A DNA stretch of 31,393 nucleotides. It comes from Planctomycetota bacterium. Lineage in GTDB: Bacteria; Planctomycetota; Brocadiia; JAADGH01. Below the pieces are notes generated by a model that searched no databases, was not told the origin of the DNA, and worked only from the letters and a program-made list of their open reading frames with translations. The stretch lies in contig JAADGH010000027.1 of the NCBI GenBank assembly GCA_013152475.1, forward strand, positions 608 to 32,000, given 5' to 3'. Both the position numbers and the translations under genes were made by a program. This document shows, one piece after another, positions 10,848 through 30,823 of this stretch. Every line of letters begins with the position of its first letter. Within the stretch, counting starts at the first letter, position 1.

Positions 10848-11349
10848 GGCATGCCTCCATCCGTTCAGGGGGAAATGGTTCCGCATACACTGTGACTACC
10901 GAGCGAATGTCGTGCCGAGTGCCCGGACCGTCAGAAAAGCCGAGACAAACCCTTGTGAGGCAGGCGAGTACGACAACGGTTTCGGGGAAAGAAAATTGAG
11001 TTCCGGCGTTGAGTTATCGATTGTTGGGGAACTGGAGAGTGGCGATGCCCAATTGCGATAAGCGTGCAAGTGGAAGATGGCAGCAAGCTTGGGGCAAGAA
11101 ACTGAATTTTGAGATGAAACGGCACGGGATATGATGCTTCGTTGCTTGCTGGCGGGGGCCGTCAGAGTAGGCATGGTACACAAGAAAAGGATTGCGCTAC
11201 CAAGCCGCAGCCTGTAACTTGGGTATGTCAGGCCAGCCAATTACAGAAACCCGTTGGTGGCGGCGTTCAGCATTGCGCGAGGCCGTAACCGTGGCGATGC
11301 GCATGGATCCTGCAAGGGTATCGAAAGCCCATGGAGAAGGAGGAAAATC

Positions 11350-11796
11350 ATGTCGGCAAAACCATTCGGACTGGCCATGAAGGCGTTCATCTACGATGAG
11401 GAAGGACGCTGTCTTCTTATCAGACGATCCATGAACTCAAAATTCTTCGCCGGCCAGTGGGATTTGCCGGGAGGCAAGGTGGATTCCGGCGAAGAATTCG
11501 ACGATGCCATGGCTCGGGAGGTGGCCGAAGAGACGGGCTTGACCATTACACTGGAAGGGGTTGCCGGAGCGAGTGAGCACGAACTGCCGCACATTCGTGT
11601 CGCGATCCTGTTCATGGAAGCGCGTGTTGCGTCGGGAGATGTCCAGTTGAGCAGTGAGCACGACGAATTCAGATGGGTATCACGGAAGGAACTCGGCAAC
11701 ATGGACATCTCCGATCAATTGAGTCCCTTTGTTTTGAGCTATCTTGAATCGAGCAATAAGTCGCAGATCATCTCGGACGAAAGGGGCCATGGATAA
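11350..11796 (+). CDS. NUDIX hydrolase
   Basis: Complete Nudix box GKVDSGEEFDDAMAREVAEETGL (GX5EX7REUXEEXGU). AAGGAGGA lies about 5 nt before the ATG at 11350. The track ORF from 11254 is an upstream extension. Confidence 0.9.
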   Translation: MSAKPFGLAMKAFIYDEEGRCLLIRRSMNSKFFAGQWDLPGGKVDSGEEFDDAMAREVAEETGLTITLEGVAGASEHELPHIRVAILFMEARVASGDVQLSSEHDEFRWVSRKELGNMDISDQLSPFVLSYLESSNKSQIISDERGHG

Positions 11797-11840
11797 TAGC
11801 TCTGAACAATAATTTGCCGGTTTTACAAAGGAGACATCCG

Positions 11841-14930: not shown

Positions 14931-16637
14931 TCACACCCCCTTCATCAACCAGTCCCGCTCGTGAAATACGGCGTCGAGGGCGCTGTCGAGATGGTCGTCA
15001 ATGATACTGCGCCAGTAGGTAACGGCATCGACGGGAACGGAGAACAGTAGGTCGTCGAAGTGGGAGAGTTTCTCGATCAGTCCTTCGAATATGCCGAAGG
15101 TGGACTTGCCGTGGAAGAGCAGCGGCTGCTGGCAGAGTCTTTCAAGTTCGAGCATGTGGTGGCGCATAGTCCTGTGGACATTCTTGAGCGCCTTGGGTTC
15201 TGTCTTGCTTTTGAGCACGCGCTGGAAGGCATTCCGAAAGGCCAAGATCAGGTCCTGCGCCTCAAGAAGGTGGCGCAGGCATTCGACGGCGTGCCGGCTT
15301 AGCTCATCGGCAGGCAGCTCGTCAGGCTCGATCGCTGCGGCCTGGCCCAGAAGGCGAAAGACCCCGCGCAAGTGTTTCGCGTTGAGACTATGTCTTGGGA
15401 CGATGTTGTGAAACACCGCATAGAGATGGGCAAGCACCGACTTCAATTCGCGTGCATTGCCGGGCCAGCGATAGGTTTGCAGTTCTGAGATGATGTCGGG
15501 GGGTAATGTCCAATTGCTGTTCCCTGTGATCTTTGCCCAGAATGCCTTGGCCAGCAAGGCCACATTTTCGGGGTTATCCTGGAGTCTCGGCGTGGAGATG
15601 ACGAACCATCGGAGGCGGTAGTACAAGTCTTCTCGAAACTGGCCGCTGTGAACCATGGACGGCAGATCGCGGTTGGTTGCGGCGATCACTCGAGCATTCA
15701 CAGGGGTCTCTTTCTGCTCACCAATTCTCCGGACCTTATGGTCCTGTATGGCACGCAATATCTTTGTTTGATGATCGAGCCTGAGTTCGCCAATCTCATC
15801 AAGGAACAGAATTCCATTCTGTGCGGACTGCCACAAGCCTACCTTATCCCTCGTCGCGCCGGTGAAGGCTCCCTTTATATAGCCGAATAGCTCCGATTCC
15901 AGCAGTTCGCTTGGAATGGCACCGCAGTTGACCGGTACGAAGGGCCCCCTTCTGAGCGGACCGAACGTGTGAATGCATTTTGCGACGAGCTCTTTGCCAG
16001 TGCCTGTATCGCCAAGGATGAGCACCGGGTTGTCGTCTTCTTTGGCGAGGACAATGAGTTTCCTAGCAAGTTCCACTTTTTTGCATGTGCCCACAAATCG
16101 TTCTGCAAGCGCCTTTGGGACCTCGACCTTGGCCAACAGAGAGATGGGCGACTCGTCTTTGCTCCCTGCCGGGTCATCCTGAAGGGCCTCCTTCCAGAGT
16201 TCCCGGAATTGATCTTCTGGAACAGCAATGAGGCAGGCCCGGAGCCGGTCGTTCCCTTCGGCCTTGGGATTAAGGAGGGCTTTGTCGGCTCTTTTAAGGA
16301 GGGCCTTTACGCCTCCCTTCAAATGCCCTGTTGTTCCGTATTTTGCGCGAATCAATCGAATTCCGTCTTGCCCCTTCAAAAGCCGGTAGAGCTCAATCTC
16401 TTCGTTTTGCACGCCTTTGTCGACAACAAGGTCATCGAGTTTTGTCAGTTGCTCAATGTCGATAGATGAGATGACGTAGGCCGTTGGCCGTTCCGGTGAG
16501 CACGCTTGCTTGAATGCTGTCTTAGTGTTCCATTCCGCTCTGCGGCATGCAAGATCTTTCTTTTTCGGTTCCTCGTCGGTTTTCGGCTCCCTGTTTGGAT
16601 CAAGAAAGAGCTCGACCGCACTTATGTTCATCTTCAT
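14931..16637 (-). CDS. sigma-54-dependent AAA+ transcriptional activator (bEBP) with unknown N- and C-terminal domains
   Basis: Walker A LILGDTGTGKELVAK. Sigma-54 contact loop YIKGAFTGA (GAFTGA). Walker B ILFLDEIGEL, then RVIAATNRDL, EDLYYRL, RWPGNARELKSV. GGAGGA RBS. No Fis-type HTH is recognisable in the ~150-aa C-terminus. Confidence 0.85.
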   Translation of the reverse strand: MKMNISAVELFLDPNREPKTDEEPKKKDLACRRAEWNTKTAFKQACSPERPTAYVISSIDIEQLTKLDDLVVDKGVQNEEIELYRLLKGQDGIRLIRAKYGTTGHLKGGVKALLKRADKALLNPKAEGNDRLRACLIAVPEDQFRELWKEALQDDPAGSKDESPISLLAKVEVPKALAERFVGTCKKVELARKLIVLAKEDDNPVLILGDTGTGKELVAKCIHTFGPLRRGPFVPVNCGAIPSELLESELFGYIKGAFTGATRDKVGLWQSAQNGILFLDEIGELRLDHQTKILRAIQDHKVRRIGEQKETPVNARVIAATNRDLPSMVHSGQFREDLYYRLRWFVISTPRLQDNPENVALLAKAFWAKITGNSNWTLPPDIISELQTYRWPGNARELKSVLAHLYAVFHNIVPRHSLNAKHLRGVFRLLGQAAAIEPDELPADELSRHAVECLRHLLEAQDLILAFRNAFQRVLKSKTEPKALKNVHRTMRHHMLELERLCQQPLLFHGKSTFGIFEGLIEKLSHFDDLLFSVPVDAVTYWRSIIDDHLDSALDAVFHERDWLMKGV

Positions 16638-17006: not shown

Positions 17007-17651
17007 ATGGTCATATGGATATTGGATCAATCAAGACACTGGAAACCTGTCGGGCTGAAAGACGGATTGATCAGCGTTGGCGTGAGCGATGGGCGAGCCG
17101 CCGTAGTGAGTCCAGATGAAGGCAATGCCGTGGCGTCGTTGATCCCTTACCAGGATCTCAATGGCCGCAGGCGCTGCTTTCTGATCTGCCGACGGGGTAG
17201 CCACGTGCGCTGCAAGGGCCTCCCTATTTTGGCGGGGGTACGGGTGCTTTCGGACAAAGATGAGATTGCGCTCGGCAACGGGCCGGAAGCGAGATTCTAC
17301 TATTCCCAGGAGTCCAAGCCGCAGATCGTGCCGTTCGAGGAGGGACCAAGGCCCACCTACTGCGCACGATCGAAGGCCAGGATCACCCAAGGCACTCCTG
17401 CGGTACAGTGCCCCTCGTGCGGGCTTTGGTACATCGAGACGGACGAGATGCCAGCGTACACCTACTGCGGGGAGCCCTGTGTGGGATGCGGGCGCCCGAC
17501 GACCACTGACTATTCGTGGGCGCCCGATCCCCTTCCCGCCCTACGACCAGAAGGCCAACGGTTATGGGAGAAGTGGTGTTCCCCCAGGACCATGAAACCG
17601 CAGGTGAGCAAACGGAGCAGTAAGGTGACTCCCGCAGCGGATTCGAGGTGA
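17007..17651 (+). CDS. hypothetical protein, FHA-like N-terminal domain plus CxxC...CxxC zinc ribbon
   Basis: LISVGVSDG...FLICRRGSHVRCKGLPILAGVRVLSDKDEIALGNGPEARFYY resembles the FHA strand pattern. C-terminal CPSCGLWY...YCGEPCVGCGRP. First gene after the sigma-54 promoter candidate. Confidence 0.6.
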   Translation: MVIWILDQSRHWKPVGLKDGLISVGVSDGRAAVVSPDEGNAVASLIPYQDLNGRRRCFLICRRGSHVRCKGLPILAGVRVLSDKDEIALGNGPEARFYYSQESKPQIVPFEEGPRPTYCARSKARITQGTPAVQCPSCGLWYIETDEMPAYTYCGEPCVGCGRPTTTDYSWAPDPLPALRPEGQRLWEKWCSPRTMKPQVSKRSSKVTPAADSR

Positions 17652-17657
17652 GACCAG

Positions 17658-18815
17658 ATGATTACACAGGAACGCTATTCGAGATTGAAAGCAATCTGGG
17701 GTGCACCCAATCTGTCTTGCCTCCGATCCAAGACCGTTATGGTCATCGGTTGTGGAAATCTCGGCGGGCAGATCATTCCGCACCTTGCGATGCTTGGCGT
17801 CGGTATGGTGCTTGTGGACCACGACCGGGTGAAAGCGCCGAACCTCGGGAATCAGGCGTTTGATGTGGCGCACATGGAAAAATCGAAGGTTTCCGGCCGT
17901 GAAGAGCAAGTGAAGAGGATCAACCCGGAGTGCAGAATCGAGACACTGGATGCGCGAGTTGAAGCCCTCGGTATGGGGGTGTTCCGAGATGTCGATATGG
18001 TGTTCTGCTGTTTGGACAATCTGGCCTCCCGTCTCTGGGTGAACGAGGCATGCCTTCGGTTGTCCGTGCCTTGGGTGGATGCCGCTCTGGATGGATCCGG
18101 CAAGACTACATATGCCAAGGTCGCCTGTTTTCCGAATACGGACGGGTCGGCCTGTTACCTCTGCTCGTGGGATGCGGACGCTCTGCAGGGGACTCTTCGC
18201 ACAGAAAATGGCGGATGCAAGTCCTGGTGGGACATCGGCAATGAAGATGCCCCTCCAACGCTGAGTTCATCGTGTCAAGCTGCAGTGGCGGCCGGCATTC
18301 AATGCGTTGCGGGACTTCGGATGCTGCTGGGCGATGGGGAAGCCGACTCCTCCCACGAGATCATCGTCAATCCAGAGGCAGGCTTCATGCGACGGGTGTG
18401 TCTGAAGGCGAATGTGGAGTCATGCATCGCGCCCCACGAGCCGTTCATGGATGTGGCAAGAGCGGGTGCTGGCCGCGCGTTGTCGGTCAACGACCTGTTC
18501 AGTCTGGCGGAGCGAAAGCTCGGCCCGGGTGTGGAGCTGGTCTTGCATGGGAGGGATTTGCTGACGACAGTCGATTGTGCAGCGTGCCAGAAAGGGAACG
18601 GTATCTGGCGGATGACCAATAACAGTGCGAAGAGCAAGATGACATGCCTGTGCGGAGCGCCGCTTACGCCGACTCCGCTGAGCGTGCTCAGGCAGATGGA
18701 CCGAGGCGCCGTGACGCCGATCCTGACACACACATGGGCGGAACTTGGATTGCCGCGGAAGGACATAGTCACCGCGAAGAAGAACGGTGCGAGTGTTCAC
18801 TTCCTCATCGAATAG
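17658..18815 (+). CDS. ThiF/MoeB-family E1-like adenylyltransferase
   Basis: RYSRL at the N-terminus. Rossmann VMVIGCGNLGGQIIPHLAMLGVGMVLVDHDRV. CCLDNLASRLWVNEAC (DN..R motif). Two CxxC pairs (CYLC, CAAC) as in the ThiF/MoeB zinc site. Only 6 nt after the previous gene. Confidence 0.85.
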   Translation: MITQERYSRLKAIWGAPNLSCLRSKTVMVIGCGNLGGQIIPHLAMLGVGMVLVDHDRVKAPNLGNQAFDVAHMEKSKVSGREEQVKRINPECRIETLDARVEALGMGVFRDVDMVFCCLDNLASRLWVNEACLRLSVPWVDAALDGSGKTTYAKVACFPNTDGSACYLCSWDADALQGTLRTENGGCKSWWDIGNEDAPPTLSSSCQAAVAAGIQCVAGLRMLLGDGEADSSHEIIVNPEAGFMRRVCLKANVESCIAPHEPFMDVARAGAGRALSVNDLFSLAERKLGPGVELVLHGRDLLTTVDCAACQKGNGIWRMTNNSAKSKMTCLCGAPLTPTPLSVLRQMDRGAVTPILTHTWAELGLPRKDIVTAKKNGASVHFLIE

Positions 18816-18828
18816 GAGCATCGACGAG

Positions 18829-19374
18829 ATGAAAGGCGAAGACAGCGTATTCAGGAAGTTCCTCGATAACAGCTACGACCGAGGACGCGAACTGGAACGG
18901 GAAAGTGATATCCTGCGAATCGAGGCGCGACGCGGGGAACCGCCGACGGGTTTTCTGTGCAGCTTTGTTGGTGTCGAACACTTGGTTCGAGATCCGGACG
19001 GCACGGTAGAGAAGTGCACAGACCCTATCCTGATCGAGGTGCAGTTCCCCCCGGACTACCTGAAGTCGTGCGATCCTCATCTGGGGCTGCGGGTTGTGGG
19101 GATGTTGAACCGGAACATCTTTCACCCCAACATCCGTCCCCCGGCAGTCTGTCTCGGGAATGCGCTCCGGCCCGGGACAACGCTCGACGAGATACTGAGG
19201 TACGTCTACGAGATTATCAGCTATCAGAACGTCACGCCGAACGAATCGGATGCATTCTCGGCAGAGGCGTGCCGTTACGTGAGAGAGCACCCGGGGGTGC
19301 TGAGCGGATTGCGCATTCCGCCTCTACGCAGGAGAAAGTTGAGGAACGTGACCACTACGGTGAGGTCGCTCTGA
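18829..19374 (+). CDS. E2-like ubiquitin-conjugating (UBC-fold) protein
   Basis: VQFPPDYL...NRNIFHPNIRPPAVCLG carries the HPN motif followed by Cys at the canonical E2 spacing. The track ORF from 18787 would overlap the E1 end. The ATG at 18829 is used here. Confidence 0.8.
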   Translation: MKGEDSVFRKFLDNSYDRGRELERESDILRIEARRGEPPTGFLCSFVGVEHLVRDPDGTVEKCTDPILIEVQFPPDYLKSCDPHLGLRVVGMLNRNIFHPNIRPPAVCLGNALRPGTTLDEILRYVYEIISYQNVTPNESDAFSAEACRYVREHPGVLSGLRIPPLRRRKLRNVTTTVRSL

Positions 19375-19391
19375 CGGGAGAAGTGGAAAAC

Positions 19392-20291
19392 ATGAACGAT
19401 GGAATTCACACACGTCTCTGGGGCCCAGGTACAGGAAGCCGCCCCCAGTCGCCTCTGGACAGGTTGGAGAAAGAGGTGAACGGATTTGTGAGGACACCGG
19501 ACGGTGCGGGCAGATTCGCCGTCGGAACCGCAGAGGTTGATGTGCGCCAGGACACGGAGCAGTGCCTGGTGCTCTCGGCCCCGCTCAGGAACGGATACGT
19601 CACGAAGATGGAGTTGTTGCGCCGTCAGCATTTCATCCAAGGTCCGTGCAAGTTCGCCGGCAATGGGCGGGGCAAGGTCCTGATCGCCGAGGCATTTCTG
19701 CGGCGTTCCAAAGAGCGGCTGATGGAGGCGTTCGAGGCGGCAACGGAGGGAATCGAGGCGGCAACACGCCTCGTTTCATGCAGCAACGCGAATTCCCAGG
19801 CGGCCCCCGGCTTCTTCCTGCGGGCAATCGACACGAAACAGAAAGACTTGGTGGAACGCTCGCTGGATGATCTCGGGGTGTCTGCGGCGCTTCGTGAAGA
19901 CGGCGTCTGGGCATGGTCTGTCGATACGAGCCGTCTACTGCATAGGATCCGGGTGAGGATTTCCGAAGGAAAGGAGAACTACTATGTTCATGTGGAAATC
20001 ACTGGCGACCCTTTGGGGACGCTTCTATCGACCGAGAGCCAAGAGGCCGTGGCCCGATTTGTTCTCGAAGCGAATCACAGCCTCCGTTTCGCTCGTTGCT
20101 CTGTGGCCGATGTTGAGAACGATTCCGGCCCCATGTTTCTTGCGGAGGCGGTCGTGCCGATAACCTTGTTCGACCATGAGCTGGCCAAGGCCATGATCGA
20201 CAGCGTTGTAGTGGCAGGGGAACAGGTTCGCGATGAAATCAACGCACTATGTCAGCCTGATGTCGCCCGCGCCTACCTCGGGATGCGGTGA
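19392..20291 (+). CDS. hypothetical protein (299 aa) embedded between E2 and Ubl genes
   Basis: Uninterrupted frame starting MNDGIHTRLW at the ATG at 19392, 17 nt after the E2 stop. The 444-aa track ORF from 18957 is an upstream extension through the E2 gene. No catalytic motif recognised. Confidence 0.65.
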   Translation: MNDGIHTRLWGPGTGSRPQSPLDRLEKEVNGFVRTPDGAGRFAVGTAEVDVRQDTEQCLVLSAPLRNGYVTKMELLRRQHFIQGPCKFAGNGRGKVLIAEAFLRRSKERLMEAFEAATEGIEAATRLVSCSNANSQAAPGFFLRAIDTKQKDLVERSLDDLGVSAALREDGVWAWSVDTSRLLHRIRVRISEGKENYYVHVEITGDPLGTLLSTESQEAVARFVLEANHSLRFARCSVADVENDSGPMFLAEAVVPITLFDHELAKAMIDSVVVAGEQVRDEINALCQPDVARAYLGMR

Positions 20292-20330
20292 TACTGGGTC
20301 TCGTGGAAAAATGGAAGGAGGTGAAGGAAT

Positions 20331-20597
20331 ATGGGAGAGCCAAGAGGGTTCATCAGATCATTGTCCGTGACGGATTGGAACCAACAGAAACGAGTGGATT
20401 TCGACGGGAAGATCGAACTGGACAGCTCTGTGGGAGAGATACTGAAGGAAGCGGTCCACAGGCTCGACCTGCCGCGGAACACGGCCTACAGCGCCGTCTT
20501 GGAGGGAAGAAAGCTGATCAACAGCGAAACCCTCGACAAGGCCGGCGTGAAAGAAGCCGACGAGATCATGGTCACCCCCGAGGTGACTGCCGGATGA
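20331..20597 (+). CDS. small ubiquitin-like (beta-grasp-sized) protein ending in Gly
   Basis: 88 aa, with a strong RBS (GGAAGGAGGTGAAGG) upstream. The C-terminus is ...MVTPEVTAG-stop, so a C-terminal Gly is exposed without processing. It sits between the E2 and JAB genes. Confidence 0.7.
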   Translation: MGEPRGFIRSLSVTDWNQQKRVDFDGKIELDSSVGEILKEAVHRLDLPRNTAYSAVLEGRKLINSETLDKAGVKEADEIMVTPEVTAG

Positions 20598-20744
20598 TCG
20601 GCAGGATCGATACGGCTACGGACCTCACGTTTCTTCAGTCTCGGCAGTGAGCCCCAAGCGCCGATGGCGGGCGAATATGGAGATGGCTGGGCTCCCGCGA
20701 AGGGGTAGCGGGAAGCTCCAGCCGGACAATAGGCATGTGATCGT

Positions 20745-21842
20745 ATGGAAAGGAAAGCTACGGTGAGTATTCCGGCAGCAGCGACCTCTCAGAACAAGTA
20801 CACGTTCACGCTTGAGTTGGCCGATCTGGAGCTGACCAAGATTTTGCACCGGGAGCCGCTCCAGGCCGTCTCCAGACTTGTCGAGCACTTCATTTTCGAG
20901 GTGCGATGCCGCGGACTCATTGATGACGGTGCGGAGGATCCCCCGTCCGAGGTGATCCCGGTCTGGTCGGGCGGTTCCGAAGGCCCGTTCGTCAATGGCA
21001 TCCGTGTGCGTCTCGACTTCAACGGAGACAAGGATGCTGTGGTGAAGGACTTCGGCATCACACACTTTGCCAGCCAAGCCCGTACCGTTGCGTCCAACCT
21101 GATTGTGCGCGGTGTGCTCAAGCAGGACGAGCGATTCCACTATCTGATCAGCGCGTTGCGCAGTGATGTGCAGACCGAAACGAGCGGCCAAGAGCCAAAA
21201 CGAGGATTCCACACCTCCGTTCGGACGCCGAGAATCGCGTTTCTCCCAACGCCTCTCGCCTCTCTGTCGTCCACTCTCGCCACAGATGAGGCGCAGGAGA
21301 AATTCTTGGATGTCTTGATTCCCAGGGTGGTCGCCGACGAGATCCTTGGGCGTGTCGAGCAGTCCAATGAAGACGAATTGGGCGGATTCCTGATAGGCAA
21401 CCTTTGTCGCGATCCATCGTCCGGTCGGGCATTTGTGCTGGTGAACGCGCAGGTTGAGGCCCGCGAAGGGACCGAAGCGACGTGCACGAGCTTCAAGTTC
21501 ACCGACCGAACATTCCTGGCGGCATCTCACTGTCTCCAATCGCGACGGCGAAAGGGCGAGCGCATCGTGGGCTGGTACCATAGCCATGTGTTCTGCAGGA
21601 AGTGCGAGAAGCGGAACACATGTGACGTCGGCACCGTGTTCTGGTCGCAGAGCGACCAGACGGTACACGAGTCGGCATTCCCACACCCCTACCAGTTCGG
21701 TTTGGTGGTGGGCTACGGTGGCGGCGCCAAGAACACCGGAAACGGCCCATACGCATTTAAGTTGTACGGTTGGCGGGACTGCATGATTACCGAACGACCG
21801 GTCACCATAGTGAATGGAGTGGATGATGGTGAAGCAGAATAA
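20745..21842 (+). CDS. JAB/MPN (JAMM) metallopeptidase with ~190-aa N-terminal extension
   Basis: JAMM elements are present: EDELGGFLIG (Glu), GWYHSH (HxH), WSQSD (SxxD). A Cys-rich insert FCRKCEKRNTCD lies between HxH and SxxD. Confidence 0.8.
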   Translation: MERKATVSIPAAATSQNKYTFTLELADLELTKILHREPLQAVSRLVEHFIFEVRCRGLIDDGAEDPPSEVIPVWSGGSEGPFVNGIRVRLDFNGDKDAVVKDFGITHFASQARTVASNLIVRGVLKQDERFHYLISALRSDVQTETSGQEPKRGFHTSVRTPRIAFLPTPLASLSSTLATDEAQEKFLDVLIPRVVADEILGRVEQSNEDELGGFLIGNLCRDPSSGRAFVLVNAQVEAREGTEATCTSFKFTDRTFLAASHCLQSRRRKGERIVGWYHSHVFCRKCEKRNTCDVGTVFWSQSDQTVHESAFPHPYQFGLVVGYGGGAKNTGNGPYAFKLYGWRDCMITERPVTIVNGVDDGEAE

Positions 21843-23520
21843 AGACGAAGACATCCTGAAGGTGCTGCTGGGTGAGGAGCTTCCGGCAGCGGAAGAAGAC
21901 AGCCGGCTGGAGAGGCTCCTCAGCGGTGATCCGCCGAAGGGCGTTCTGGTGGAGATGTTGCTGCGCGCCACCAACCAGAAGCGCAAGCTCGAGTTGGGCC
22001 TCCAGGAGGCAAAGAAGCTGGATCAAAAGAAGAGCAAGTTGATCCAGGAGTTGACGGCTCTTCCGTGGTATCCGGCGAAGTTTGTCAGGCGATGCGACAA
22101 CATGCCCGGGAAGGTCTATGTTTCTGTGGGTCACAGCGAGATGCTCGTCGGCTGCGCCAACGGGATTCGCCCGGATGAGCTGCGTCACAGCCAAACGGTT
22201 CTCCTGTCGCACGAGAGGAACTGTATCGTCGGCGTCGATGACTGCCCTTCGCGCTTTGGCGATATCGGCACGGTGGATCGTGTGCTGGGGGAACAGGCCA
22301 TTCTGAAAATCAATGAAGCCGAGGAGATTCGCGTGGGTCTCTCCGATGAACTGCGGGCGGACCCACCGAAGACGGGAGACCGGGTGATATACGACCGAGG
22401 CCTGCTTCTCGCTTTGGAGATTCTTCCCAAGCAAGAGGAGGAGAGCTCTATTCTGGAGGACGTTGACAGCTCGATCAGCTTCGACATGATTGGCGGACTG
22501 GATGACGTAATCGATCAGATCCTCGAAGACGTGGCCCTCCATCTGTTCCACCGTGACCTGGTGCGGGAGCATCGGCTCCGCCCTTCAAAAGGCATTATCC
22601 TGGCGGGACCGCCTGGGGTAGGGAAGACGATGATTGGGAAAGCGCTTGGCACGTTTCTGAAGTCACAGGCGGTCACATCCGGGGAAGTGAAGTTCTGCGC
22701 CCTCCCCCCGGGATCGTTCCGGTCACACTATTATGGGATGACGGAGCAGCGAATCCGGCAGGTTTTTCGGGTCTGCAGGGATTTCTCGAAACGCAAAGAC
22801 GGCAACCGATGCATTCTCTTCTGTGACGAACTCGATACATGGGGGCGTCGCTCCGCAGACGTCACGAACAGCGTGGATTCGAGGGTGCTGACGTGCTTCC
22901 TGAGCGAAGTGGATGGGCTTGATGAGACCGGAAACATCTTTCTCATTGGGGCGACAAACCGGGCGGACGATCTTGTGGATTCCGCCCTTATGCGGCCCGG
23001 GCGCTTTGGCGACAATATCCTTCGCATCCCCCGTCCCGGACGCGAAGCAATCCGCGACATCTTCGGGAAGTATCTCACCCCCGACCTGCCCTTCAGGCGC
23101 AACGGACACCGGGCGTCGCAGGCGGAAGCCGCCGAGATTGCGGCCGAAATCATCGATGCCGCAACATCGAGAATCTTCCGCGCCAATGATGACGCGAGGA
23201 TTGCCACGTTGATCATGCGTGATGGGTCGCGGCGCGACGTTCATGCCCGGGAGATCATATCGGGGGCCATGTGTGAGAATATCGTCCGCCGCGCGAAGGT
23301 GAGATCGTGTGTGCGTGGACTTGCGGAAGAAACGGGCATCACGCCGGCCGACGTGATCGAGGCAGTGGACGACGAAGTGACCTCGGCGGCACGCTCTCTC
23401 CGATCTCCGAGCAATGCCAGGGCGGTGCTCGGCTTGAGTAGTGACAACGATATTGTGCGCGTGGAGTTTCCTTCGGATGGCGCCGAGCACATTCGCCCTC
23501 ATCGTTATGTTCGAGCGTGA
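21814..23520 (+). CDS. Mpa/ARC/PAN-like AAA+ unfoldase (coiled coil - OB-like - classical AAA)
   Basis: Coiled coil NQKRKLELGLQEAKKLDQKKSKLIQEL, then a beta-rich segment. Walker A ILAGPPGVGKT, pore loop HYYG, Walker B ILFCDELD, sensor LIGATNR, RPGRFG box. Overlaps the JAB stop by 29 nt, with alternative ATGs at 21823 and 21826. Confidence 0.85.
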   Translation: MEWMMVKQNKDEDILKVLLGEELPAAEEDSRLERLLSGDPPKGVLVEMLLRATNQKRKLELGLQEAKKLDQKKSKLIQELTALPWYPAKFVRRCDNMPGKVYVSVGHSEMLVGCANGIRPDELRHSQTVLLSHERNCIVGVDDCPSRFGDIGTVDRVLGEQAILKINEAEEIRVGLSDELRADPPKTGDRVIYDRGLLLALEILPKQEEESSILEDVDSSISFDMIGGLDDVIDQILEDVALHLFHRDLVREHRLRPSKGIILAGPPGVGKTMIGKALGTFLKSQAVTSGEVKFCALPPGSFRSHYYGMTEQRIRQVFRVCRDFSKRKDGNRCILFCDELDTWGRRSADVTNSVDSRVLTCFLSEVDGLDETGNIFLIGATNRADDLVDSALMRPGRFGDNILRIPRPGREAIRDIFGKYLTPDLPFRRNGHRASQAEAAEIAAEIIDAATSRIFRANDDARIATLIMRDGSRRDVHAREIISGAMCENIVRRAKVRSCVRGLAEETGITPADVIEAVDDEVTSAARSLRSPSNARAVLGLSSDNDIVRVEFPSDGAEHIRPHRYVRA

Positions 23521-23547
23521 AGCGACCGAAGAAAGGCAGGAATTCCG

Positions 23548-25254
23548 ATGGCAGTCAAGAAGATCACCGGCGCCGACATCGAGTTTGGCAACAGCATCGT
23601 GGGCCGAAAGTCAGGTTCCCAAAGCACGTCATATGAAGCGTGTCAATATCTCTTGAATGAGGTGGATGGGATCGCACCGCTTTCGGGATGGCGCAATAAT
23701 GTGGGATTCTACCAGACGCATTACGCCACATGCGGGACGGAATTGCCCAATAGCGGGGTATGGGGGAATGCCACCAATGCCCACACACAAGGCAGCGCCT
23801 ACAACTATCGCGACTACGGGCGAAAGTGGCGCAACTACTGCATCTATGGTGACTTGGGCCATTGTGAAGGCTGCCTACCAGAGACCACATCGGCCTTCGA
23901 CCACGTTGCCGCCCTCCACGGCCTCTACAATCTGGTCGAGAATCTCATGAGGCAGGCCAACGAGAAACTCCCCGACGGACAAGAGTTGTTTGTAACGGCG
24001 AATAACTCGGATGGGTCCAGGGTGTCGAGTTGGGGGGCACATTTCAATGTGCTGATCACGCGCAACTTGCGGAGACAGATTTTCACGCGAAAACCTCACA
24101 AGCTTGGAATGCTTGCGTCATTCTTCGCTTCCTCGGCGCCGCTCTTCGGCCAGGGCCATGTATTGAGGCGGAGGGACGGCAAGTCGAAGTTCGTTCTGTC
24201 CTCCCGGGCCCATCAGACCGGCGTTCTGGTCGATCCCTCTACGACCGTCCCGTTTCGCCGTCCGATTGTGAACTCCCGGGACGAACGGCACGCCTCAGAA
24301 GACCTGGCGCGCCTGCACATCATCTGCTACGACGCCAATCTGCAGCAGATAGGAACGCTGCTGAGGGTGTGGCTTACCCAAGCTTTCCTCGCCGCCATGG
24401 AGGAGGGATTCTTCGACTCGAAACTGCTGCTGGATGATCCTGTGGCGGCCTTCCGCTGCTGGTCAGGAGGGTTCTCGGTCACTACGGGCAGAATCGAGAG
24501 GAAATGCCGTTTGGCCTTTGGGGGGAAGATATCGCCCGTTGAGTGGTTCATGGCCCTGACGGAGGCACTGGTGAACATGCACGACGCCGGTCTGCTTCCG
24601 GAGGAGATCGTTCCGGACACAGATCGGATACTGCCAATCTGGATTGACTCGCTCCGGAAATTCGCGGAAGGCAACGTGACCGCCCTTGCGAAGCGCTTCG
24701 ATTGGGCTCTGAAGCTGACGATCCTGGACCGTCAAATGTCGGAGCATGGCTTCGACCTGCAGTCGCCGGAAGCCGCGCTCCTGAACCAGATGTACGCTCA
24801 TATAGACAAGGAACGAGGTCTGTACTTCGCCCTGGAGAAGGCCGGTTTTCTGGAGACCGCCGTACGCCCCCAGAGAATCGCGTTCATGCAGGCAAACGGC
24901 CCTATGGATACGAGGGCCTTCGCCAGGAAGTCAATCATTGAGAAGTTCTCGGATAACATTCGGCGAATCGACTGGGGGAAAATCACGTTGGAGATTCCCA
25001 GCAACAACGGCTGGGGGAGTCGGAAGACAATACTCCTCGACCATCCCGGTCACTACACTCAAGCGGAGGTCGGACAACTGATTGAGGAGTGCCGCACAGT
25101 AGAGGACCTCTGCAGAGCCATGGAAACGCATGATCCGAACACTGTGCGGTCGTCGTCCCTTGTGGTGCGGGACTGCGGCAGCGTAGAACCCGGATGTTGC
25201 GGCACTGAAACGCAGTGGCCTAACAGGGGAGAACAGGAGACCCAGAGGAAATGA
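23548..25254 (+). CDS. Pup-ligase/Dop family (PafA-like) protein 1
   Basis: Three segments match my recollection of M. tuberculosis PafA:
- KKITGADIEFG (cf. PafA RIMGIETEFG).
- ANNSDGSRVSSWGAHFNVL (cf. KNNTDSAGNSYGCHENYL).
- RPIVNSRDERHA..LARLHIICYDANLQQIGTLL (cf. RPIINTRDEPHA..RRLHVIVGDSNMSETTTML). Confidence 0.8.
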   Translation: MAVKKITGADIEFGNSIVGRKSGSQSTSYEACQYLLNEVDGIAPLSGWRNNVGFYQTHYATCGTELPNSGVWGNATNAHTQGSAYNYRDYGRKWRNYCIYGDLGHCEGCLPETTSAFDHVAALHGLYNLVENLMRQANEKLPDGQELFVTANNSDGSRVSSWGAHFNVLITRNLRRQIFTRKPHKLGMLASFFASSAPLFGQGHVLRRRDGKSKFVLSSRAHQTGVLVDPSTTVPFRRPIVNSRDERHASEDLARLHIICYDANLQQIGTLLRVWLTQAFLAAMEEGFFDSKLLLDDPVAAFRCWSGGFSVTTGRIERKCRLAFGGKISPVEWFMALTEALVNMHDAGLLPEEIVPDTDRILPIWIDSLRKFAEGNVTALAKRFDWALKLTILDRQMSEHGFDLQSPEAALLNQMYAHIDKERGLYFALEKAGFLETAVRPQRIAFMQANGPMDTRAFARKSIIEKFSDNIRRIDWGKITLEIPSNNGWGSRKTILLDHPGHYTQAEVGQLIEECRTVEDLCRAMETHDPNTVRSSSLVVRDCGSVEPGCCGTETQWPNRGEQETQRK

Positions 25255-25300
25255 GCAGTGACCTGACGCGGAAGATGGACCCGATTGACGAAAGGAGCAC

Positions 25301-25516
25301 ATGATGAGTGGCGAAAGAGAAATATTCCGTCGTCGTCCAGGAAGCAACGATCCAAACGATGAATTGAATGGCCCAGATGCCGAGCGACTTCAGAATGCAA
25401 GGAACCAAGCTGGGGATTTTGACTCGGTTATCGGGCGGGCCCTTGCGTCTTTGCGAAACCAGAAGAACTCGGCAGAGAACATCCTGAAGTCCATAAGAAA
25501 CCCGGGCGGAGAATAA
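25301..25516 (+). CDS. Pup-like small protein modifier ending in GGE
   Basis: 71 aa, with AAAGGAG 3-6 nt before ATGATG. Polar and low-complexity N-half. The C-terminus NSAENILKSIRNPGGE-stop resembles M. tuberculosis Pup ENAEDFVRAYVQKGGQ, with the AE at the same distance from the end. The stop lies 1 nt before the next start. Confidence 0.7.
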   Translation: MMSGEREIFRRRPGSNDPNDELNGPDAERLQNARNQAGDFDSVIGRALASLRNQKNSAENILKSIRNPGGE

Positions 25517-25517
25517 G

Positions 25518-27098
25518 ATGGAAGAAGAAGTATTCATCCTGGGTTCGGAGCATGAACTGGCGGCGGCGATGTTTCCACCTCACGGCGGGCTGGGGCACAT
25601 CAGCAACGATATTGCTCACGAAGTGATCCAGCGGGAACTAAAGAGCTCCGGCGTTCCGTATCTGTTCGATACCTCTCGATCGGGCTTGTTCCTCTACCTC
25701 GGTCGGATCTACATGGACCCGACGGGACACCACGTGGAATTTGCCGTCTGTCCGGCAGGGTCGCCGCACGAAGTCGTTCAAACCGAGGCGAAGATGATCC
25801 GTCTGTTGCGCGACGCTATACGGTGGGTGCAAGTGCACTTGTCCGGCTTTGCGCTTGTTCACAACAACTACGATTACATTACGCACTCTACGTGGGGCCA
25901 GCACTGCAACTATGCCATCCAGGTGCCGCTTGATGCCCTCGAACGGGCGCTCGTCCCTTTCCTTGTTACCCGCCAGGTCTTCGCCGGGCCCGGTTCGGTT
26001 GGATGCAACGACCACGGGATGGACCTGAATCCAAGGACGCACTTCATATCGCGCACAACCGGGGGCGAGACGACGAGCAGTCGGAGCATCTATTCCACCG
26101 CACGGAATGAGCCCTTGATGGTGTCCTCCCGCTTCCATCACCGGCTCCACCTCATTTCCGGATGCTCGCTTATGAGCCAATTCGGACAATGGCTGAAGCT
26201 GGGCACTACCGCTTTGGTGATCCGGGCGGCGGAAAAGGATCCGACCATCGGCGATGCGGTTGCCTTTGCAGATCCCGTCCGTGCGATAAAGACGCTGAGC
26301 GTCTTAACTCCGGACCGGAAACATCTCTTCGATCCGCACTTGCTGAAGGTGCAGAAACACTATGTTCGAGTTGTAGCGGACATGCTCCAGGAAGGTGATT
26401 TTCCGAAGTGGTGCTTCGATATCTGGAGAGCGTGGCACGATACCCTCAAAAGACTCGAAAGCGATCCGATGGCACTGGATCGTCGGCTGGACCCATACAT
26501 CAAACTCAGACTATTCGGCCGCTTCCTGCAGGAACGAGGAAAACGGTGGCACCACGTGAGCGAAGACGAAAGCCTCTACTACGATCTCGCGTTGCTGGAT
26601 GTCCGATACCACGCCCTCTCTGGCGGTTTGTTCGAGATGCTGGATGCAGAAGGCGTGCTCGAACACAAGCTTGTGTCGGATAGGGAAGCAACGCCCGGCA
26701 GCGAGGATGATCCATATGTGCTCACCGGCCTGCCAAGGGAATCCTTCAGGGGGCGAATGATCAAGAAGCTGAATGGGCGGTCGCAGTTCCGCTGCGATTG
26801 GCAGCATATCACTGACATGGAGCGGAGGCAATATCTGGAGATGCACGACCCTTTGGAAACGCCCCGGGGGCGATGGCAGCGGATGATGACGAGAGAACAA
26901 GATGCTTTTCGCATCTCTCTCGTTTCAGAAGGAGAGCTGCGTTCACCGTCTCGGCGAGCAGGCCCCCCGCCATCGGGCCGGACACCTCGTGATAGTCTTC
27001 CCCGAGTCATTAGAGAGCTGCTGGAGGCACGCGAACACGAACTCGATGAGGTGCGACTGAGGGCGCGTCAACAGGCGCGAGAACGCCCCGGGCAGTAG
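25518..27098 (+). CDS. Pup-ligase/Dop family (PafA/Dop-like) protein 2
   Basis: FILGSEHEL, RIYMDPTGHHVEFA (cf. RLYLDVGSHPEYA), STWGQHCNYA, LVPFLVTRQVFAGPG (cf. LLPFLVTRQLICGAG), HRLHLISGCSLMSQFGQWLKLGTTALVIRAAE (cf. [31 protein letters not shown]). Confidence 0.8.
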   Translation: MEEEVFILGSEHELAAAMFPPHGGLGHISNDIAHEVIQRELKSSGVPYLFDTSRSGLFLYLGRIYMDPTGHHVEFAVCPAGSPHEVVQTEAKMIRLLRDAIRWVQVHLSGFALVHNNYDYITHSTWGQHCNYAIQVPLDALERALVPFLVTRQVFAGPGSVGCNDHGMDLNPRTHFISRTTGGETTSSRSIYSTARNEPLMVSSRFHHRLHLISGCSLMSQFGQWLKLGTTALVIRAAEKDPTIGDAVAFADPVRAIKTLSVLTPDRKHLFDPHLLKVQKHYVRVVADMLQEGDFPKWCFDIWRAWHDTLKRLESDPMALDRRLDPYIKLRLFGRFLQERGKRWHHVSEDESLYYDLALLDVRYHALSGGLFEMLDAEGVLEHKLVSDREATPGSEDDPYVLTGLPRESFRGRMIKKLNGRSQFRCDWQHITDMERRQYLEMHDPLETPRGRWQRMMTREQDAFRISLVSEGELRSPSRRAGPPPSGRTPRDSLPRVIRELLEAREHELDEVRLRARQQARERPGQ

Positions 27099-27151
27099 AG
27101 CACAAACGGGGATGACATCCCCTTCTGAGGAGTTGCGGAAACGGAGCAGGA

Positions 27152-28303
27152 ATGGATCTCGACGATGTTCTCATGAGGGAACTGAAGGGACAAGGGGTGA
27201 AGCTCGACGCCCGCGATCGAGACACCCTCATCCTCTACGGTGTCCCCGTGAGCGCACAATACAGCAAGTCCCATGTCAACCTGCTCGTCAAACGGTCACG
27301 AGAAAAGCTGTTTTTCTGTTTTGCCGATCAGGATTTGGCGTATCAGGGGCAAGATCCGGCTATATGTCGCTTGTTCGGCGGTGAAGGGGTCAAGCGCGAA
27401 GGCTGGCGATGTCTCTTTGCAGACCATTCAGATCGTACGTTCCAGGGGGCGGTTGAGCGTGCGTTGTCCATCCTGGGGTTTTTGGCAGAGCCACGTCTTC
27501 CTCCTCCCAACGTACATGCACAAGGCGGCTGCCAACTGCTGAACGCCTTCGCCAGGGACCTTTCCGGAGAAATCCGGGAAGGCATGGCGGAGCCGACAGT
27601 CGGTCGAGAGAAAACGGTCGCGGAGGTTACCATGTGCCTGCGGCGCATGGGAGGGGCCAAACTCGTGATCGTTGCCGGCCCGCCGGGCGTCGGCAAGACG
27701 AACCTATGCAGCGCAGTCGCGGCTCGACTTGCGGAATGTTGCCCGACCCTTGCCATGTGGTCGGTGGATCTCGGCCTCCTCTTCGCCGGGACACTCTTCG
27801 ACGCGGAACGGGAGGGCCTATTGATGAATCTCCTGAGTGAGACGATCGAGAACAACGGAACCGGCCTCGTTCTTGCGATGGAACATCTGGAACTGACGCT
27901 TCGTTCCCCATGTGGTCCGGATATTCTGACCCACGCGTTGAACTCCAACGCAAGGATCGTCGGGGTCACAACGGCCGAGCACCTGCGTCATATCCCCCCT
28001 GCGTTGGCCAGGCGCGCGCACGTGATCGAGCTTGCCGGTCTGTCACCGACCCAGACGCTCGGAGTGCTGAGAGCCCATGCGGAAAGGTTGGCAAAGCATC
28101 ATGGGGTGCAGATTCCTGACGCGTGCCTGCCTGCATGCGTCAAAGCGGTCCAAGAGCTGCCAGGCAACCTGCCGGCCAAGGCCTTGCTCATACTGGACAC
28201 GGCAGCCGCCAACGTGGCGCTGTCGAGTGCCGGAGTGGTTAGCGTGGACGACATCTACTTCGCCGCAAGGCTCTGCGAGAAGAGCGCGGAACGCCTTCCC
28301 TGA
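27152..28303 (+). CDS. ClpA/ClpB D1-like single AAA+ module with unknown (possibly E2/UEV-like) N-terminal domain
   Basis: GREKTVAEVTMCLRR...LVIVAGPPGVGKTNL (Walker A). VDLGLLFAGTLFDAEREGLLMNLLSE (cf. Clp LDxxxLxAGxxxRGEFEERL). RIVGVTTAEHLRHI..PALARRAHVIEL (cf. IGATTxxEYR...ALxRRFQxV). HHGVQIPDACL...LPAKALLILDTAAA (cf. LPDKAIDLLDEA). The Walker B position reads LVLAMEHL. Confidence 0.7.
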   Translation: MDLDDVLMRELKGQGVKLDARDRDTLILYGVPVSAQYSKSHVNLLVKRSREKLFFCFADQDLAYQGQDPAICRLFGGEGVKREGWRCLFADHSDRTFQGAVERALSILGFLAEPRLPPPNVHAQGGCQLLNAFARDLSGEIREGMAEPTVGREKTVAEVTMCLRRMGGAKLVIVAGPPGVGKTNLCSAVAARLAECCPTLAMWSVDLGLLFAGTLFDAEREGLLMNLLSETIENNGTGLVLAMEHLELTLRSPCGPDILTHALNSNARIVGVTTAEHLRHIPPALARRAHVIELAGLSPTQTLGVLRAHAERLAKHHGVQIPDACLPACVKAVQELPGNLPAKALLILDTAAANVALSSAGVVSVDDIYFAARLCEKSAERLP

Positions 28304-28440: not shown

Positions 28441-29286
28441 GTGAAGCAGGGGGCACGAAGAAGAACCGGCGGCCGGCAACAGGTCTTCATCAGCTACCGG
28501 CGCGAGGGCGGCGCTGAGTTAGCCCGCTTGGTGCGAAATAGCTTGGTGCAGCGAGGCTATCGAGTGTTCATGGATGTGGAAGACCTGCGCACCGGTCCCT
28601 TCAATAAGGCCCTTGCGGAGTGCATCAGGTTTTGTACGGACGTGGTGATCATTCTGACTCCAGGCAGTCTTGATCGTTGCTTCAACCAAGGGGATTGGGT
28701 CAGACTCGAGATTGCCTATGCCCTCCAGCAGAAGAAGAACATCATTCCTGTGATGGCTCGGGGTTTCGAGTGGCCGCCGAAGCCGCTTCCGAAGGATATT
28801 GGCGGTCTGCCGCTCTTCAACGCCCTCACACCCGCCCACGAAATCTTTGACGCCAGTATGGACAAGCTTGCGTCCCTGCTCCATGCGCGCCCACGCAAGA
28901 TGGCCCCAAAGCTGCTTCTCTGTGGAGCTGCAATCGCTGCCGTGGTCGCGGTCACGCTTTTCATGGTTTTACCGTCATCTGACCGAGCGAAACAGAGCCC
29001 AGTTGAGCAGACACTCAAGGATAAGAAGCCTACGAAAGACAAAGAGGCGGGGACTCCGCGTGATGCGGCCAAGGACTTGGGCCGGAAACGCCAGCAACCA
29101 CCTCTACCTCCTCTGTCTCGAATGGGCGGTCGCGAAAGACCTTTCTGCGAAACCCTATCCGGAGAAGAAGCCCTTGTGGACGTTCCAGAAACGGTAGAAG
29201 GGGATAGCGTATGTGCCGCGTGGCGTATCCATTGCGGAGGTGAAACCAATCGGAGGGATGGACGTGTTGTTCTTCACGGCCGATGA
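28441..29286 (+). CDS. TIR-domain protein with one transmembrane helix
   Basis: QVFISYRREGGAELARLVRNSLVQRGYRVFMDVEDL...DVVIILTPGSL...WVRLEIAYAL...NIIPV is a TIR with the conserved Glu. TM helix LLLCGAAIAAVVAVTLFMVL. GTG start. The 3' end overlaps the next ORF. Confidence 0.8.
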   Translation: MKQGARRRTGGRQQVFISYRREGGAELARLVRNSLVQRGYRVFMDVEDLRTGPFNKALAECIRFCTDVVIILTPGSLDRCFNQGDWVRLEIAYALQQKKNIIPVMARGFEWPPKPLPKDIGGLPLFNALTPAHEIFDASMDKLASLLHARPRKMAPKLLLCGAAIAAVVAVTLFMVLPSSDRAKQSPVEQTLKDKKPTKDKEAGTPRDAAKDLGRKRQQPPLPPLSRMGGRERPFCETLSGEEALVDVPETVEGDSVCAAWRIHCGGETNRRDGRVVLHGR

Positions 29287-29788
29287 ACACTATGGGCACG
29301 CCCACATCATCCACCTCTGCGGGCGGCCTTTTCGGACGGTGGAGGAAATGGACGAGGAGCTGATACGGCGCCACAATGCCGTCGTGAAGGACAGCGACCT
29401 CGTCGTCCATGTGGGGGACTTCACCCTCAAGAACAAGAGCCGGGCCAAATCGTACATCTCCCGCCTCAAGGGGGAACACGTCTTTCTCCGTGGAAGCCAC
29501 GACAGATGGCTGAAGGAGGCGCATGAGATTTGGGAAAAGGAGATCGCGGGAGAATACGTCGTCGTTTGCCACTACGCCATGAGAGTATGGCCGAGATCGC
29601 ACTACAACAGCTGGCAGCTCTACGGCCATTCCCACGGCAGACTCGATCCCATCGGCAAGCAGTGGGACATCGGTGTGGACAACAACGACTATTATCCCGT
29701 ATCCTTTGAGCGGATAAAAGATATCATGGCGGAGCGGCCGGACAATCCCAATCTGATCAAGGGCGGCAAACCGCGGACCCGCCGTTGA
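29213..29788 (+). CDS. calcineurin-like metallophosphoesterase
   Basis: FFTADEHYGH (motif I), VVHVGDF (GD), FLRGSHD (GNHD-like), LYGHSHG (GHxH). The start is ambiguous: GTG 29213, GTG 29240 or ATG 29258. Confidence 0.75.
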   Translation: MPRGVSIAEVKPIGGMDVLFFTADEHYGHAHIIHLCGRPFRTVEEMDEELIRRHNAVVKDSDLVVHVGDFTLKNKSRAKSYISRLKGEHVFLRGSHDRWLKEAHEIWEKEIAGEYVVVCHYAMRVWPRSHYNSWQLYGHSHGRLDPIGKQWDIGVDNNDYYPVSFERIKDIMAERPDNPNLIKGGKPRTRR

Positions 29789-29794
29789 AAGGGC

Positions 29795-30823
29795 ATGTCC
29801 TGGCGTCCGCCCGGGAGGGAAAAGGAAATCTTGAATCCACCGCAGCAAGACGCCGTTCATCCTCCCTTTGAGGCGTATTCGGGAGACGAGCCATATCTCT
29901 TTGTGAGCTATGCCCACAAGGATGCGGCGGCGGTCTACCCGGAATTGAAATGGATGCATGGGCACGGCTACCGCGTCTGGTACGACGAAGGCATTGATCC
30001 TGGGAATGAATGGCCGGAAGAGATTGCCAAAGCGCTCCACGGCTGTTCGATGTTCCTCGTCTTCATCTCCCCGCGTGCCGTCGTATCCAAGAACGTCCGC
30101 AATGAAATCAACTACGCCATCAACCACGACAAGCCCTTCCTGGCTGTGTATCTTGAAGAGACCGAACTGCCCCGGGGCCTGGAGCTCCGTATGGGTGACA
30201 TTCAGGCCATCGTGAAGTACCGTATGCCGGAAGACCGATACCATCGGCAACTACAGAGATCGCTTCCGCACGACCTGGGCGGTGGTATTCCAGAGGGTGG
30301 GGCGGTCGAGTCGCAGCCAGAGCCAGCCGCCGAAGTTGCCGCGGACACGGGCAGTCCGAAACCGTCGATCAATAGGGAAACACGCATACGACGAGAGATC
30401 TGGAAGTTCATGCTTTTTGCCCTCAGCTACGGTGTGGGGATCGCGGCGATTCAGTGCTTGGGGGTCCTTGCGAAATTCGATGGCGTTCTGTATGGGGTGG
30501 ACATTTCGGCGAAGGCGCGGTTCACGTTCAGCCTCGATGGCATACTCGCTATTGTGGTCCTGTCCGTCCTGCCCGGTGTGTGGTTTCTTCTGTGGGAGAA
30601 CAACGAGAAGGGGATTGCGTCCTCCATCGTATGCCTGCTTGCCTATTACGGATTCGCAGCGCTCCACTGGAAGTACGTCGGCCGCATGCTTCCACTGGTT
30701 GCGCCGGGCATTGCGGTCTGCGTTGCTGTATTCTGTGCTCTGGGAAATCAACTGGCGTACTGGCGCACCTGGCATTCGCCCCGGGACCCGGATGCGAAGG
30801 ACCCGTTGAAGCCGCCGTGCTAA
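29795..30823 (+). CDS. TIR-domain protein with four C-terminal transmembrane segments
   Basis: PYLFVSYAHKDAAAVYPELKWMHGHGYRVWYDEGIDPGNEW...MFLVFISPRAVVSKNVRNEINYAI...KPFLAVYL is a TIR. Hydrophobic segments: FMLFALSYGVGIAAIQCLGVL, ILAIVVLSVLPGVWFLLW, IASSIVCLLAYYGFAAL, LPLVAPGIAVCVAVFCAL. Confidence 0.8.
   Translation: MSWRPPGREKEILNPPQQDAVHPPFEAYSGDEPYLFVSYAHKDAAAVYPELKWMHGHGYRVWYDEGIDPGNEWPEEIAKALHGCSMFLVFISPRAVVSKNVRNEINYAINHDKPFLAVYLEETELPRGLELRMGDIQAIVKYRMPEDRYHRQLQRSLPHDLGGGIPEGGAVESQPEPAAEVAADTGSPKPSINRETRIRREIWKFMLFALSYGVGIAAIQCLGVLAKFDGVLYGVDISAKARFTFSLDGILAIVVLSVLPGVWFLLWENNEKGIASSIVCLLAYYGFAALHWKYVGRMLPLVAPGIAVCVAVFCALGNQLAYWRTWHSPRDPDAKDPLKPPC

Follow-up and report, generated by a model that had tools for sequence, protein, structure and literature searches.

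A candidate bacterial conflict cassette of 11 genes combining ubiquitin-like and Pup-like protein conjugation with two unfoldases

A cassette of 11 genes encoding two protein conjugation arms, one ubiquitin-like and one Pup-like, together with two predicted unfoldases, was characterized in a 31,393-nucleotide stretch of DNA from a Planctomycetota bacterium (Brocadiia; JAADGH01), comprising positions 608 to 32,000 of the forward strand of contig JAADGH010000027.1 (assembly GCA_013152475.1). The whole of this stretch is termed the window, and all positions are numbered within it. The cassette occupies positions 17007–28303, with every gene on the plus strand and intergenic spacing of −29 to +147 nucleotides, the same packed arrangement that had been read from the letters alone in an earlier annotation (the original prediction). 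That prediction placed an arm of E1, E2, ubiquitin-like protein (Ubl), and JAB peptidase in one cluster with an arm of Mpa-like ATPase, PafA/Dop pair, and Pup-like modifier, and this combination was borne out by hidden Markov model (HMM) searches against Pfam and NCBIfam, PDB searches, AlphaFold models, and the conserved motifs of ortholog alignments. PADLOC returned no whole-system model for the locus, its matches being limited to generic E1/JAB/AAA models. The reading that we favor, with moderate confidence, is that the 11 genes form a conflict system, probably antiphage, which would tag proteins by two chemistries and then unfold them without a proteasome.

The arrangement of the cassette recurs in distantly related bacteria. 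A profile of PafA1 homologs (the first of the two PafA/Dop paralogs) was run over genome contigs, yielding 80 named genomes; in 45 of these, drawn from at least 10 phyla, all six core enzymes (E1, E2, JAB, Mpa, PafA1, and the second paralog PafA2) are clustered together; loci without the full core are mostly interrupted by contig ends. Hosts in this set include Acidobacteriota, Planctomycetota (Thermoguttaceae, Phycisphaerae, Tepidisphaeraceae, and Brocadiaceae), Nitrospiraceae (Nitrospirota), deltaproteobacteria, Gemmatimonadota (Gemmatimonadales and Longimicrobiales), Armatimonadota, Eisenbacteria, Margulisiibacteriota, Hydrogenedentota, and Spirochaetales. Contigs of public assemblies, including a Nitrospiraceae locus, exhibit the same 11-gene order, and a Brocadiaceae relative from the same class but another family (genome G011) carries the order FHA-E1-E2-...-JAB-Mpa-PafA1-Pup(GGQ)-PafA2-ClpB. 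Recurrence of the gene order in unrelated genomes, which had been proposed as a check on the operon, is therefore a property of the cassette. A terminator scan of the cassette detected no intrinsic terminator between the 11 genes; the sole terminator-like hairpin sits within the E2 gene, and terminator counts equal the shuffled expectation. Two independent systems lying side by side by chance, a reading for which the differing chemistries of the two arms might be cited, is thus refuted by conserved co-occurrence in dozens of genomes, by the order shared between the 45 of 80 genomes and G011, and by the lack of a terminator separating the arms, and we give it practically no credence.

The ubiquitin-like arm comprises genes 1 to 6. 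Gene 2 (17658–18815) encodes a ThiF-type E1, predicted to activate the Ubl (PF00899, 1.7e-33), a single-domain ThiF/MoeB-type protein of 385 amino acids that is also matched by PADLOC E1-E2 models and contains two conserved CxxC motifs, both invariant across 40 orthologs. Gene 3 (18829–19374 from an ATG, with an alternative GTG start at 18787) encodes the putative UBC-fold E2. Matches to known E2 enzymes were weak (UQ_con, 0.12; alignments to UBE2S and UBC9 structures in PDB, 0.03); in these alignments the HPN motif and active-site Cys are in register with UBC enzymes. Both hallmarks are invariant across 40 orthologs, and in the window the active-site Cys lies in FHPNIRPPAVCLG. The earlier assignment of 18829–19374 to the UBC fold, for which failure of HMM or structure searches had been named as refuting, thus stands on its hallmark residues, the HMM matches being weak. 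Gene 5 (20331–20597) encodes a predicted β-grasp Ubl ending ...EVTAG (weak Ubiquitin_5 match, 0.0087). Its orthologs, placed between E2 and JAB, terminate in ...PEV[SN]AG or ...P[NI]IDAG, and some extend past the Gly by residues that the JAB protein could trim. This protein, encoded by gene 6 (20745–21842), is a JAB/JAMM-like metallopeptidase (PF01398, 3.1e-5; PF14464 [Prok-JAB], 9e-5) and a candidate for Ubl processing or deconjugation, with HxH and SxxD each retained in 40 of 40 orthologs. The spacing from HxH to SxxD is approximately 20 residues in both the window copy and orthologs and holds a conserved Cys insertion (C..C...C). As judged from these residues, the enzyme is an unusual JAMM variant, possibly with an extra Zn site.

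Two further proteins accompany this enzymatic core. Gene 1 (17007–17651) encodes a protein with an FHA domain and a Cys-rich Zn-binding domain, a possible E3-like adaptor, present at most loci with six Cys invariant among orthologs. Its AlphaFold model (predicted local distance difference test [pLDDT] score of 86) matched FHA domains in Foldseek over the FHA part only, and its ESM-atlas neighbors include Prok-RING_1 and FHA-RING clusters; the FHA-like/Zn-ribbon label first given to this gene is consistent with the FHA fold and six-Cys Zn domain now seen. Gene 4 (19392–20291) had been listed as a 299-residue protein without assignment. It is now resolved into two YbjN-like domains of the type III secretion system chaperone kind (TY-Chap), on the basis of an AlphaFold model (pLDDT 87) with structural matches to SycH, CesT, SycT, and YbjN domains and a weak YbjN match (PF10722), and positional orthologs at approximately 42 loci mark it as a conserved component. 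A start at the overlapping GTG at 18957 was considered and rejected; the ATG at 19392 has a ribosome-binding site and gives 299 amino acids. The best full-length Foldseek match of the gene 4 model is ArpC2 of the Arp2/3 complex.

The Pup arm begins with gene 7 (21814–23520), encoding an Mpa/ARC-like AAA+ unfoldase with an N-terminal region, an OB domain, and an AAA domain, as indicated by HMM and PDB searches (AAA PF00004, 1.8e-24; Prot_ATP_ID_OB_C, 6.5e-9). NCBIfam pup_AAA (TIGR03689) matched at 2.5e-84, under its curated cutoff, and the nearest solved structures are VCP-like proteins, Mpa, and ARC. The C-terminal GQYL that mediates proteasome docking is missing from the window protein and was found in none of 73 Mpa-like orthologs, whose C termini exhibit a conserved R-x-H-x-Y...VA in its place. 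Gene 9 (25301–25516) encodes a small Pup-like modifier ending ...IRNPGGE, which had no match in Pfam, NCBIfam TIGR03687, or PDB searches. The profile searches put forward to verify each open reading frame therefore identified the E1, JAB, AAA, and Pup_ligase components and left the Pup-like protein unmatched. However, an open reading frame of 60 to 110 amino acids ending [RK]Q[QE]GG[QE] is present between both PafA/Dop genes at almost every locus, with approximately half of the C termini being GGQ and half GGE. Pup of Mycobacterium tuberculosis ends ...VQKGGQ. The resemblance of the conserved terminus to the GGQ/GGE end of Pup, together with gene position, supports a Pup-like identity for this modifier, and the GGQ termini of approximately half of these proteins imply that deamidation by a Dop-like paralog would be needed in half of the systems.

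Genes 8 (PafA1; 23548–25254) and 10 (PafA2; 25518–27098) flank the modifier and are the only Pup_ligase genes of the source genome, in which 6.5 Mb in 250 contigs were searched. Both fall in the Pup-ligase/Dop family (PF03136, 1.2e-64 and 1.4e-54, respectively), a membership whose absence had been specified in advance as refuting the original prediction, and both match the Dop and PafA models of NCBIfam as well as Dop and PafA structures in PDB. In the PDB search with PafA1, Dop structures outscored PafA structures. The PafA1 family exhibits the canonical catalytic motif (RP[IL]VN[SA]RDE; RPIVNSRDE in the window) and an N-terminal GAD[IVF]E, with an N-terminal region of Dop length (approximately 233 residues ahead of the catalytic motif, matching Acidothermus Dop). 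PafA2 proteins instead have a PafA-length N-terminal region (approximately 188 residues) and a canonical N-terminal GhExE motif (GhETE), and their catalytic loop diverges, with RGI[FWY]HTK[DS]E where canonical PafA/Dop has RPIINTRDE. The window PafA2 is an outlier in its subfamily, its motif reading RSIYSTARNE. A Dop-loop is described as common to every Dop ortholog and missing from PafA (PMC8599861; PMC7947786). The two N-terminal lengths, together with a PafA1-Pup-PafA2 order that mirrors actinobacterial dop-pup-(prcBA)-pafA, suggest that PafA1 is Dop-like (a putative deamidase/depupylase) and PafA2 a PafA-like ligase.

Gene 11 (27152–28303) encodes a second predicted unfoldase, a ClpA/ClpB/TssH-type AAA+ ATPase with an N-domain and D1 (NCBIfam TssH/ClpB/ClpA; AAA_lid_9); a ClpB-D1-like gene was found at approximately half of the loci. 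No 20S proteasome genes (PrcA/PrcB) were found in the cassette or in the searched source genome, in which HslV (contig C81, locus L003) alone represents the proteasome family. A connection with a canonical 20S proteasome was considered and rejected, as the genome has only HslV and the Mpa-like proteins lack GQYL. The same two features make unfolding, instead of proteasomal degradation, the likely end point of tagging.

Beyond the genes, their domain identities, their conserved catalytic residues, and their co-occurrence in conserved order, seen in at least 10 phyla, all of which are matters of observation, we infer that the two arms cooperate. In the proposed mechanism, JAB would, where needed, expose the C-terminal Gly of the Ubl; the Ubl would be adenylated by the ThiF-type E1 and handed to the active-site Cys of E2, and E2 would conjugate it onto target lysines. 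Substrates would be selected by the FHA-Zn protein, perhaps with the tandem chaperone-fold protein, and may be marked by phosphothreonine; by architectural analogy to the FHA-RING E3s RNF8 and CHFR, the FHA-Zn protein could perhaps act as an E3-like phosphothreonine reader. In parallel, the PafA-like paralog would ligate Pup to lysines via its C-terminal Glu through γ-glutamyl phosphate chemistry, and the Dop-like paralog would deamidate any Pup of the GGQ type and undo pupylation. Pupylated proteins would be captured via Pup by the Mpa-like ATPase (predicted to be incapable of 20S proteasome docking), which would unfold them or extract them from complexes, with the ClpB-D1-like ATPase assisting in unfolding and disassembly. 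In a defense role, the cassette would inactivate phage or host proteins not through proteasomal breakdown but by tagging them, unfolding them, and taking them apart. A further proposal, which we consider a long shot, is a two-tag code in which the arms act sequentially on the same substrates (e.g., by pupylation of phage proteins that already bear the Ubl, or of the Ubl itself) and only doubly marked proteins are unfolded; if true, this would constitute a bacterial mixed-modifier chain without precedent.

Genes on both sides of the cassette resemble those of defense systems. The TIR, SLOG, RelA/SpoT, and NUDIX genes named as flanks in the original prediction are all present, the SLOG domain lying within a large RelA_SpoT-TPR-SLOG (LSDAT_prok)-RyR protein (11814–14537, plus strand), which by its domain content would be a nucleotide-signaling or toxin-like conflict protein and has a homolog near the cassette of G011 (locus L007, 4157–7069). 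Upstream of it on the plus strand are a NUDIX hydrolase (11254–11796), with homologs near the cassette in G011 and at locus L088, and a 691-amino-acid protein with TrkA_N and RyR domains (8168–10243). Directly 3′ of the cassette are two plus-strand genes for TIR-domain proteins (28441–29286 and 29795–30823), one ThcB4-like and one ThsB_TIR/FxsC-like (Thoeris-type), adjoined by a calcineurin-like metallophosphoesterase (29213–29788, plus strand); no ThsA-type partner for the TIR proteins was seen within the window. NUDIX, RelA-SLOG-RyR, and TIR genes likewise lie near the cassette of G011. A sigma-54 enhancer-binding activator (PrdR/NorR-like; 14931–16637, minus strand) is divergent from gene 1, and a search 5′ of gene 1 found no sigma-54 promoter motif. 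A search around the cassette for a tRNA or integrase marking an island found neither.

The conflict role, probably antiphage, is argued from four observations: the defense-type neighbors here and in G011, the patchy distribution of the cassette within the class of the source genome (2 of 61 genomes), a spread typical of conflict systems, the similarity of the Ubl arm to antiphage Bil/Bub systems (PMC10557695), and classification by Kaur et al. 2020, who group Ubl+Pup systems with conflict systems, related to FtsH-ternary Ubl systems with a prokaryotic RING E3. Several points weigh against it. The flanking TIR, RelA/SpoT-SLOG, and NUDIX genes vary between loci, with TIR adjoining the cassette at 2 of 80 only, and no copies of the cassette turned up when IMG/VR viral contigs were scanned. 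HMM searches point only weakly to the E2 fold. The division of PafA1 and PafA2 into depupylase and ligase draws on two features, N-terminal length and gene order, and phmmer places both proteins nearer Dop. Finally, in the literature searched no experimental study of a coupled Ubl+Pup system was found, nor any report of phage defense or conjugation by one.

Of the alternatives, a housekeeping system for quality control or stress survives best. The cassette would then be a proteasome-less counterpart to the Pup-proteasome system, where the Pup arm, the Mpa-like ATPase, and the ClpB-like disaggregase mark and unfold damaged or regulated proteins under the control of the Ubl arm. In Actinobacteria, Pup, PafA, Dop, and Mpa serve housekeeping roles, the source genome retains HslV, and the spread of the cassette over many phyla, with none on the viral contigs scanned, is consistent with such a role. 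However, each of the four observations that argue for conflict counts against housekeeping (patchiness within the class, defense-type genes around the cassette of the source genome, resemblance to Bil/Bub, and placement among conflict systems by Kaur et al. 2020), and we consider this alternative rather unlikely. More doubtful still is a regulatory or developmental system of multicellular or aggregative lifestyles, one that would tag host proteins and thereby govern programmed cell death or differentiation in place of direct attack on phage. Many hosts belong to groups (Planctomycetota, Acidobacteriota, and deltaproteobacteria) that grow as rosettes, aggregates, or complex biofilms, and Kaur et al. 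2020 link such conflict systems to multicellularity. By analogy with these lifestyles the developmental reading is conceivable, and we regard it as improbable.

The cassette brings both tagging chemistries together with a pair of unfolding motors in a single heritable, proteasome-less unit across at least 10 phyla, a breadth that merits experiments. Work on pupylation has been confined almost entirely to proteasome-bearing Actinobacteria, and E1-E2-Ubl-DUB systems are recent arrivals among antiphage systems. If the cassette does serve in defense, it would stand alone among known bacterial systems in uniting an E1-E2 thioester cascade and a γ-glutamyl-phosphate (Pup) ligase, and it would raise the questions of whether both tags share targets, whether unfolding replaces degradation, and whether an FHA-type reader links phosphosignaling to tagging, as RNF8 does in eukaryotes.

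Among known systems, the actinobacterial Pup-proteasome system (Mpa/ARC, Dop, Pup, PrcB, PrcA, and PafA) shares with the cassette an OB-domain Mpa-like AAA+ ATPase, PafA and Dop paralogs, a Pup-like GGQ/GGE terminus (by motif and position), and the order Mpa-Dop-Pup-...-PafA. In contrast, the cassette has no PrcA/PrcB and an Mpa without GQYL, adds a ClpB-D1 ATPase and the Ubl arm, resides in non-actinobacterial hosts, and encodes a divergent Pup-like sequence. UBact, said to have been described by Lehmann and colleagues in 2017, is reportedly a Pup-like modifier of Nitrospira and other Gram-negative bacteria whose loci are accompanied by a proteasome. It thus resembles the present cassette in placing Pup-like modifiers and PafA-like ligases outside Actinobacteria (including, here, a Nitrospiraceae locus) and differs in its reported proteasome linkage, no proteasome having been seen here.

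Bil and Bub systems, which encode separate E1, E2, Ubl, and JAB proteins, protect against phage (Chambers et al. bioRxiv 2023, PMC10557695). The Ubl arm resembles Bil (BilABCD) and Bub (PMC10557695; Hör et al.) in its separate E1, its UBC-like E2 with a catalytic Cys, its β-grasp Ubl with a C-terminal Gly, and its JAB; the JAB deubiquitinase of Bil/Bub can preprocess the Ubl, and the cassette Ubl ends ...TAG beside a JAB that keeps HxH and SxxD. However, the cassette E1 is a single-domain ThiF/MoeB-type protein with CxxC motifs, whereas the BilD E1 is multidomain with its own CYS domain; the cassette order is E1-E2-x-Ubl-JAB, as compared to BilA-B-C-D; and the cassette adds the FHA-Zn protein and an entire pupylation/unfolding arm. 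The closest precedent comes from Kaur et al. 2020 (eLife), who note in Thermofonsia and Planctomycetes the coupling of a Ubl-conjugation system with Pup conjugation. That mention means that the Ubl+Pup pairing was not previously unknown, and the claim of the original prediction that no such system had been described is not sustained. As in the system noted there, E1, E2, Ubl, and JAB share one neighborhood with PafA/Dop, Pup, and Mpa, and many of the 80 loci are from Planctomycetota. Compared to what appears to be a passing mention there, without gene content or order, 11 genes are detailed here, including the FHA-Zn protein, the tandem chaperone-fold protein, the PafA/Dop pair flanking Pup, the GQYL-less Mpa, and the ClpB-D1 ATPase, across at least 10 phyla. 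The architecture therefore adds a new example to a kind that comparative genomics had noted before, and is not categorically new.

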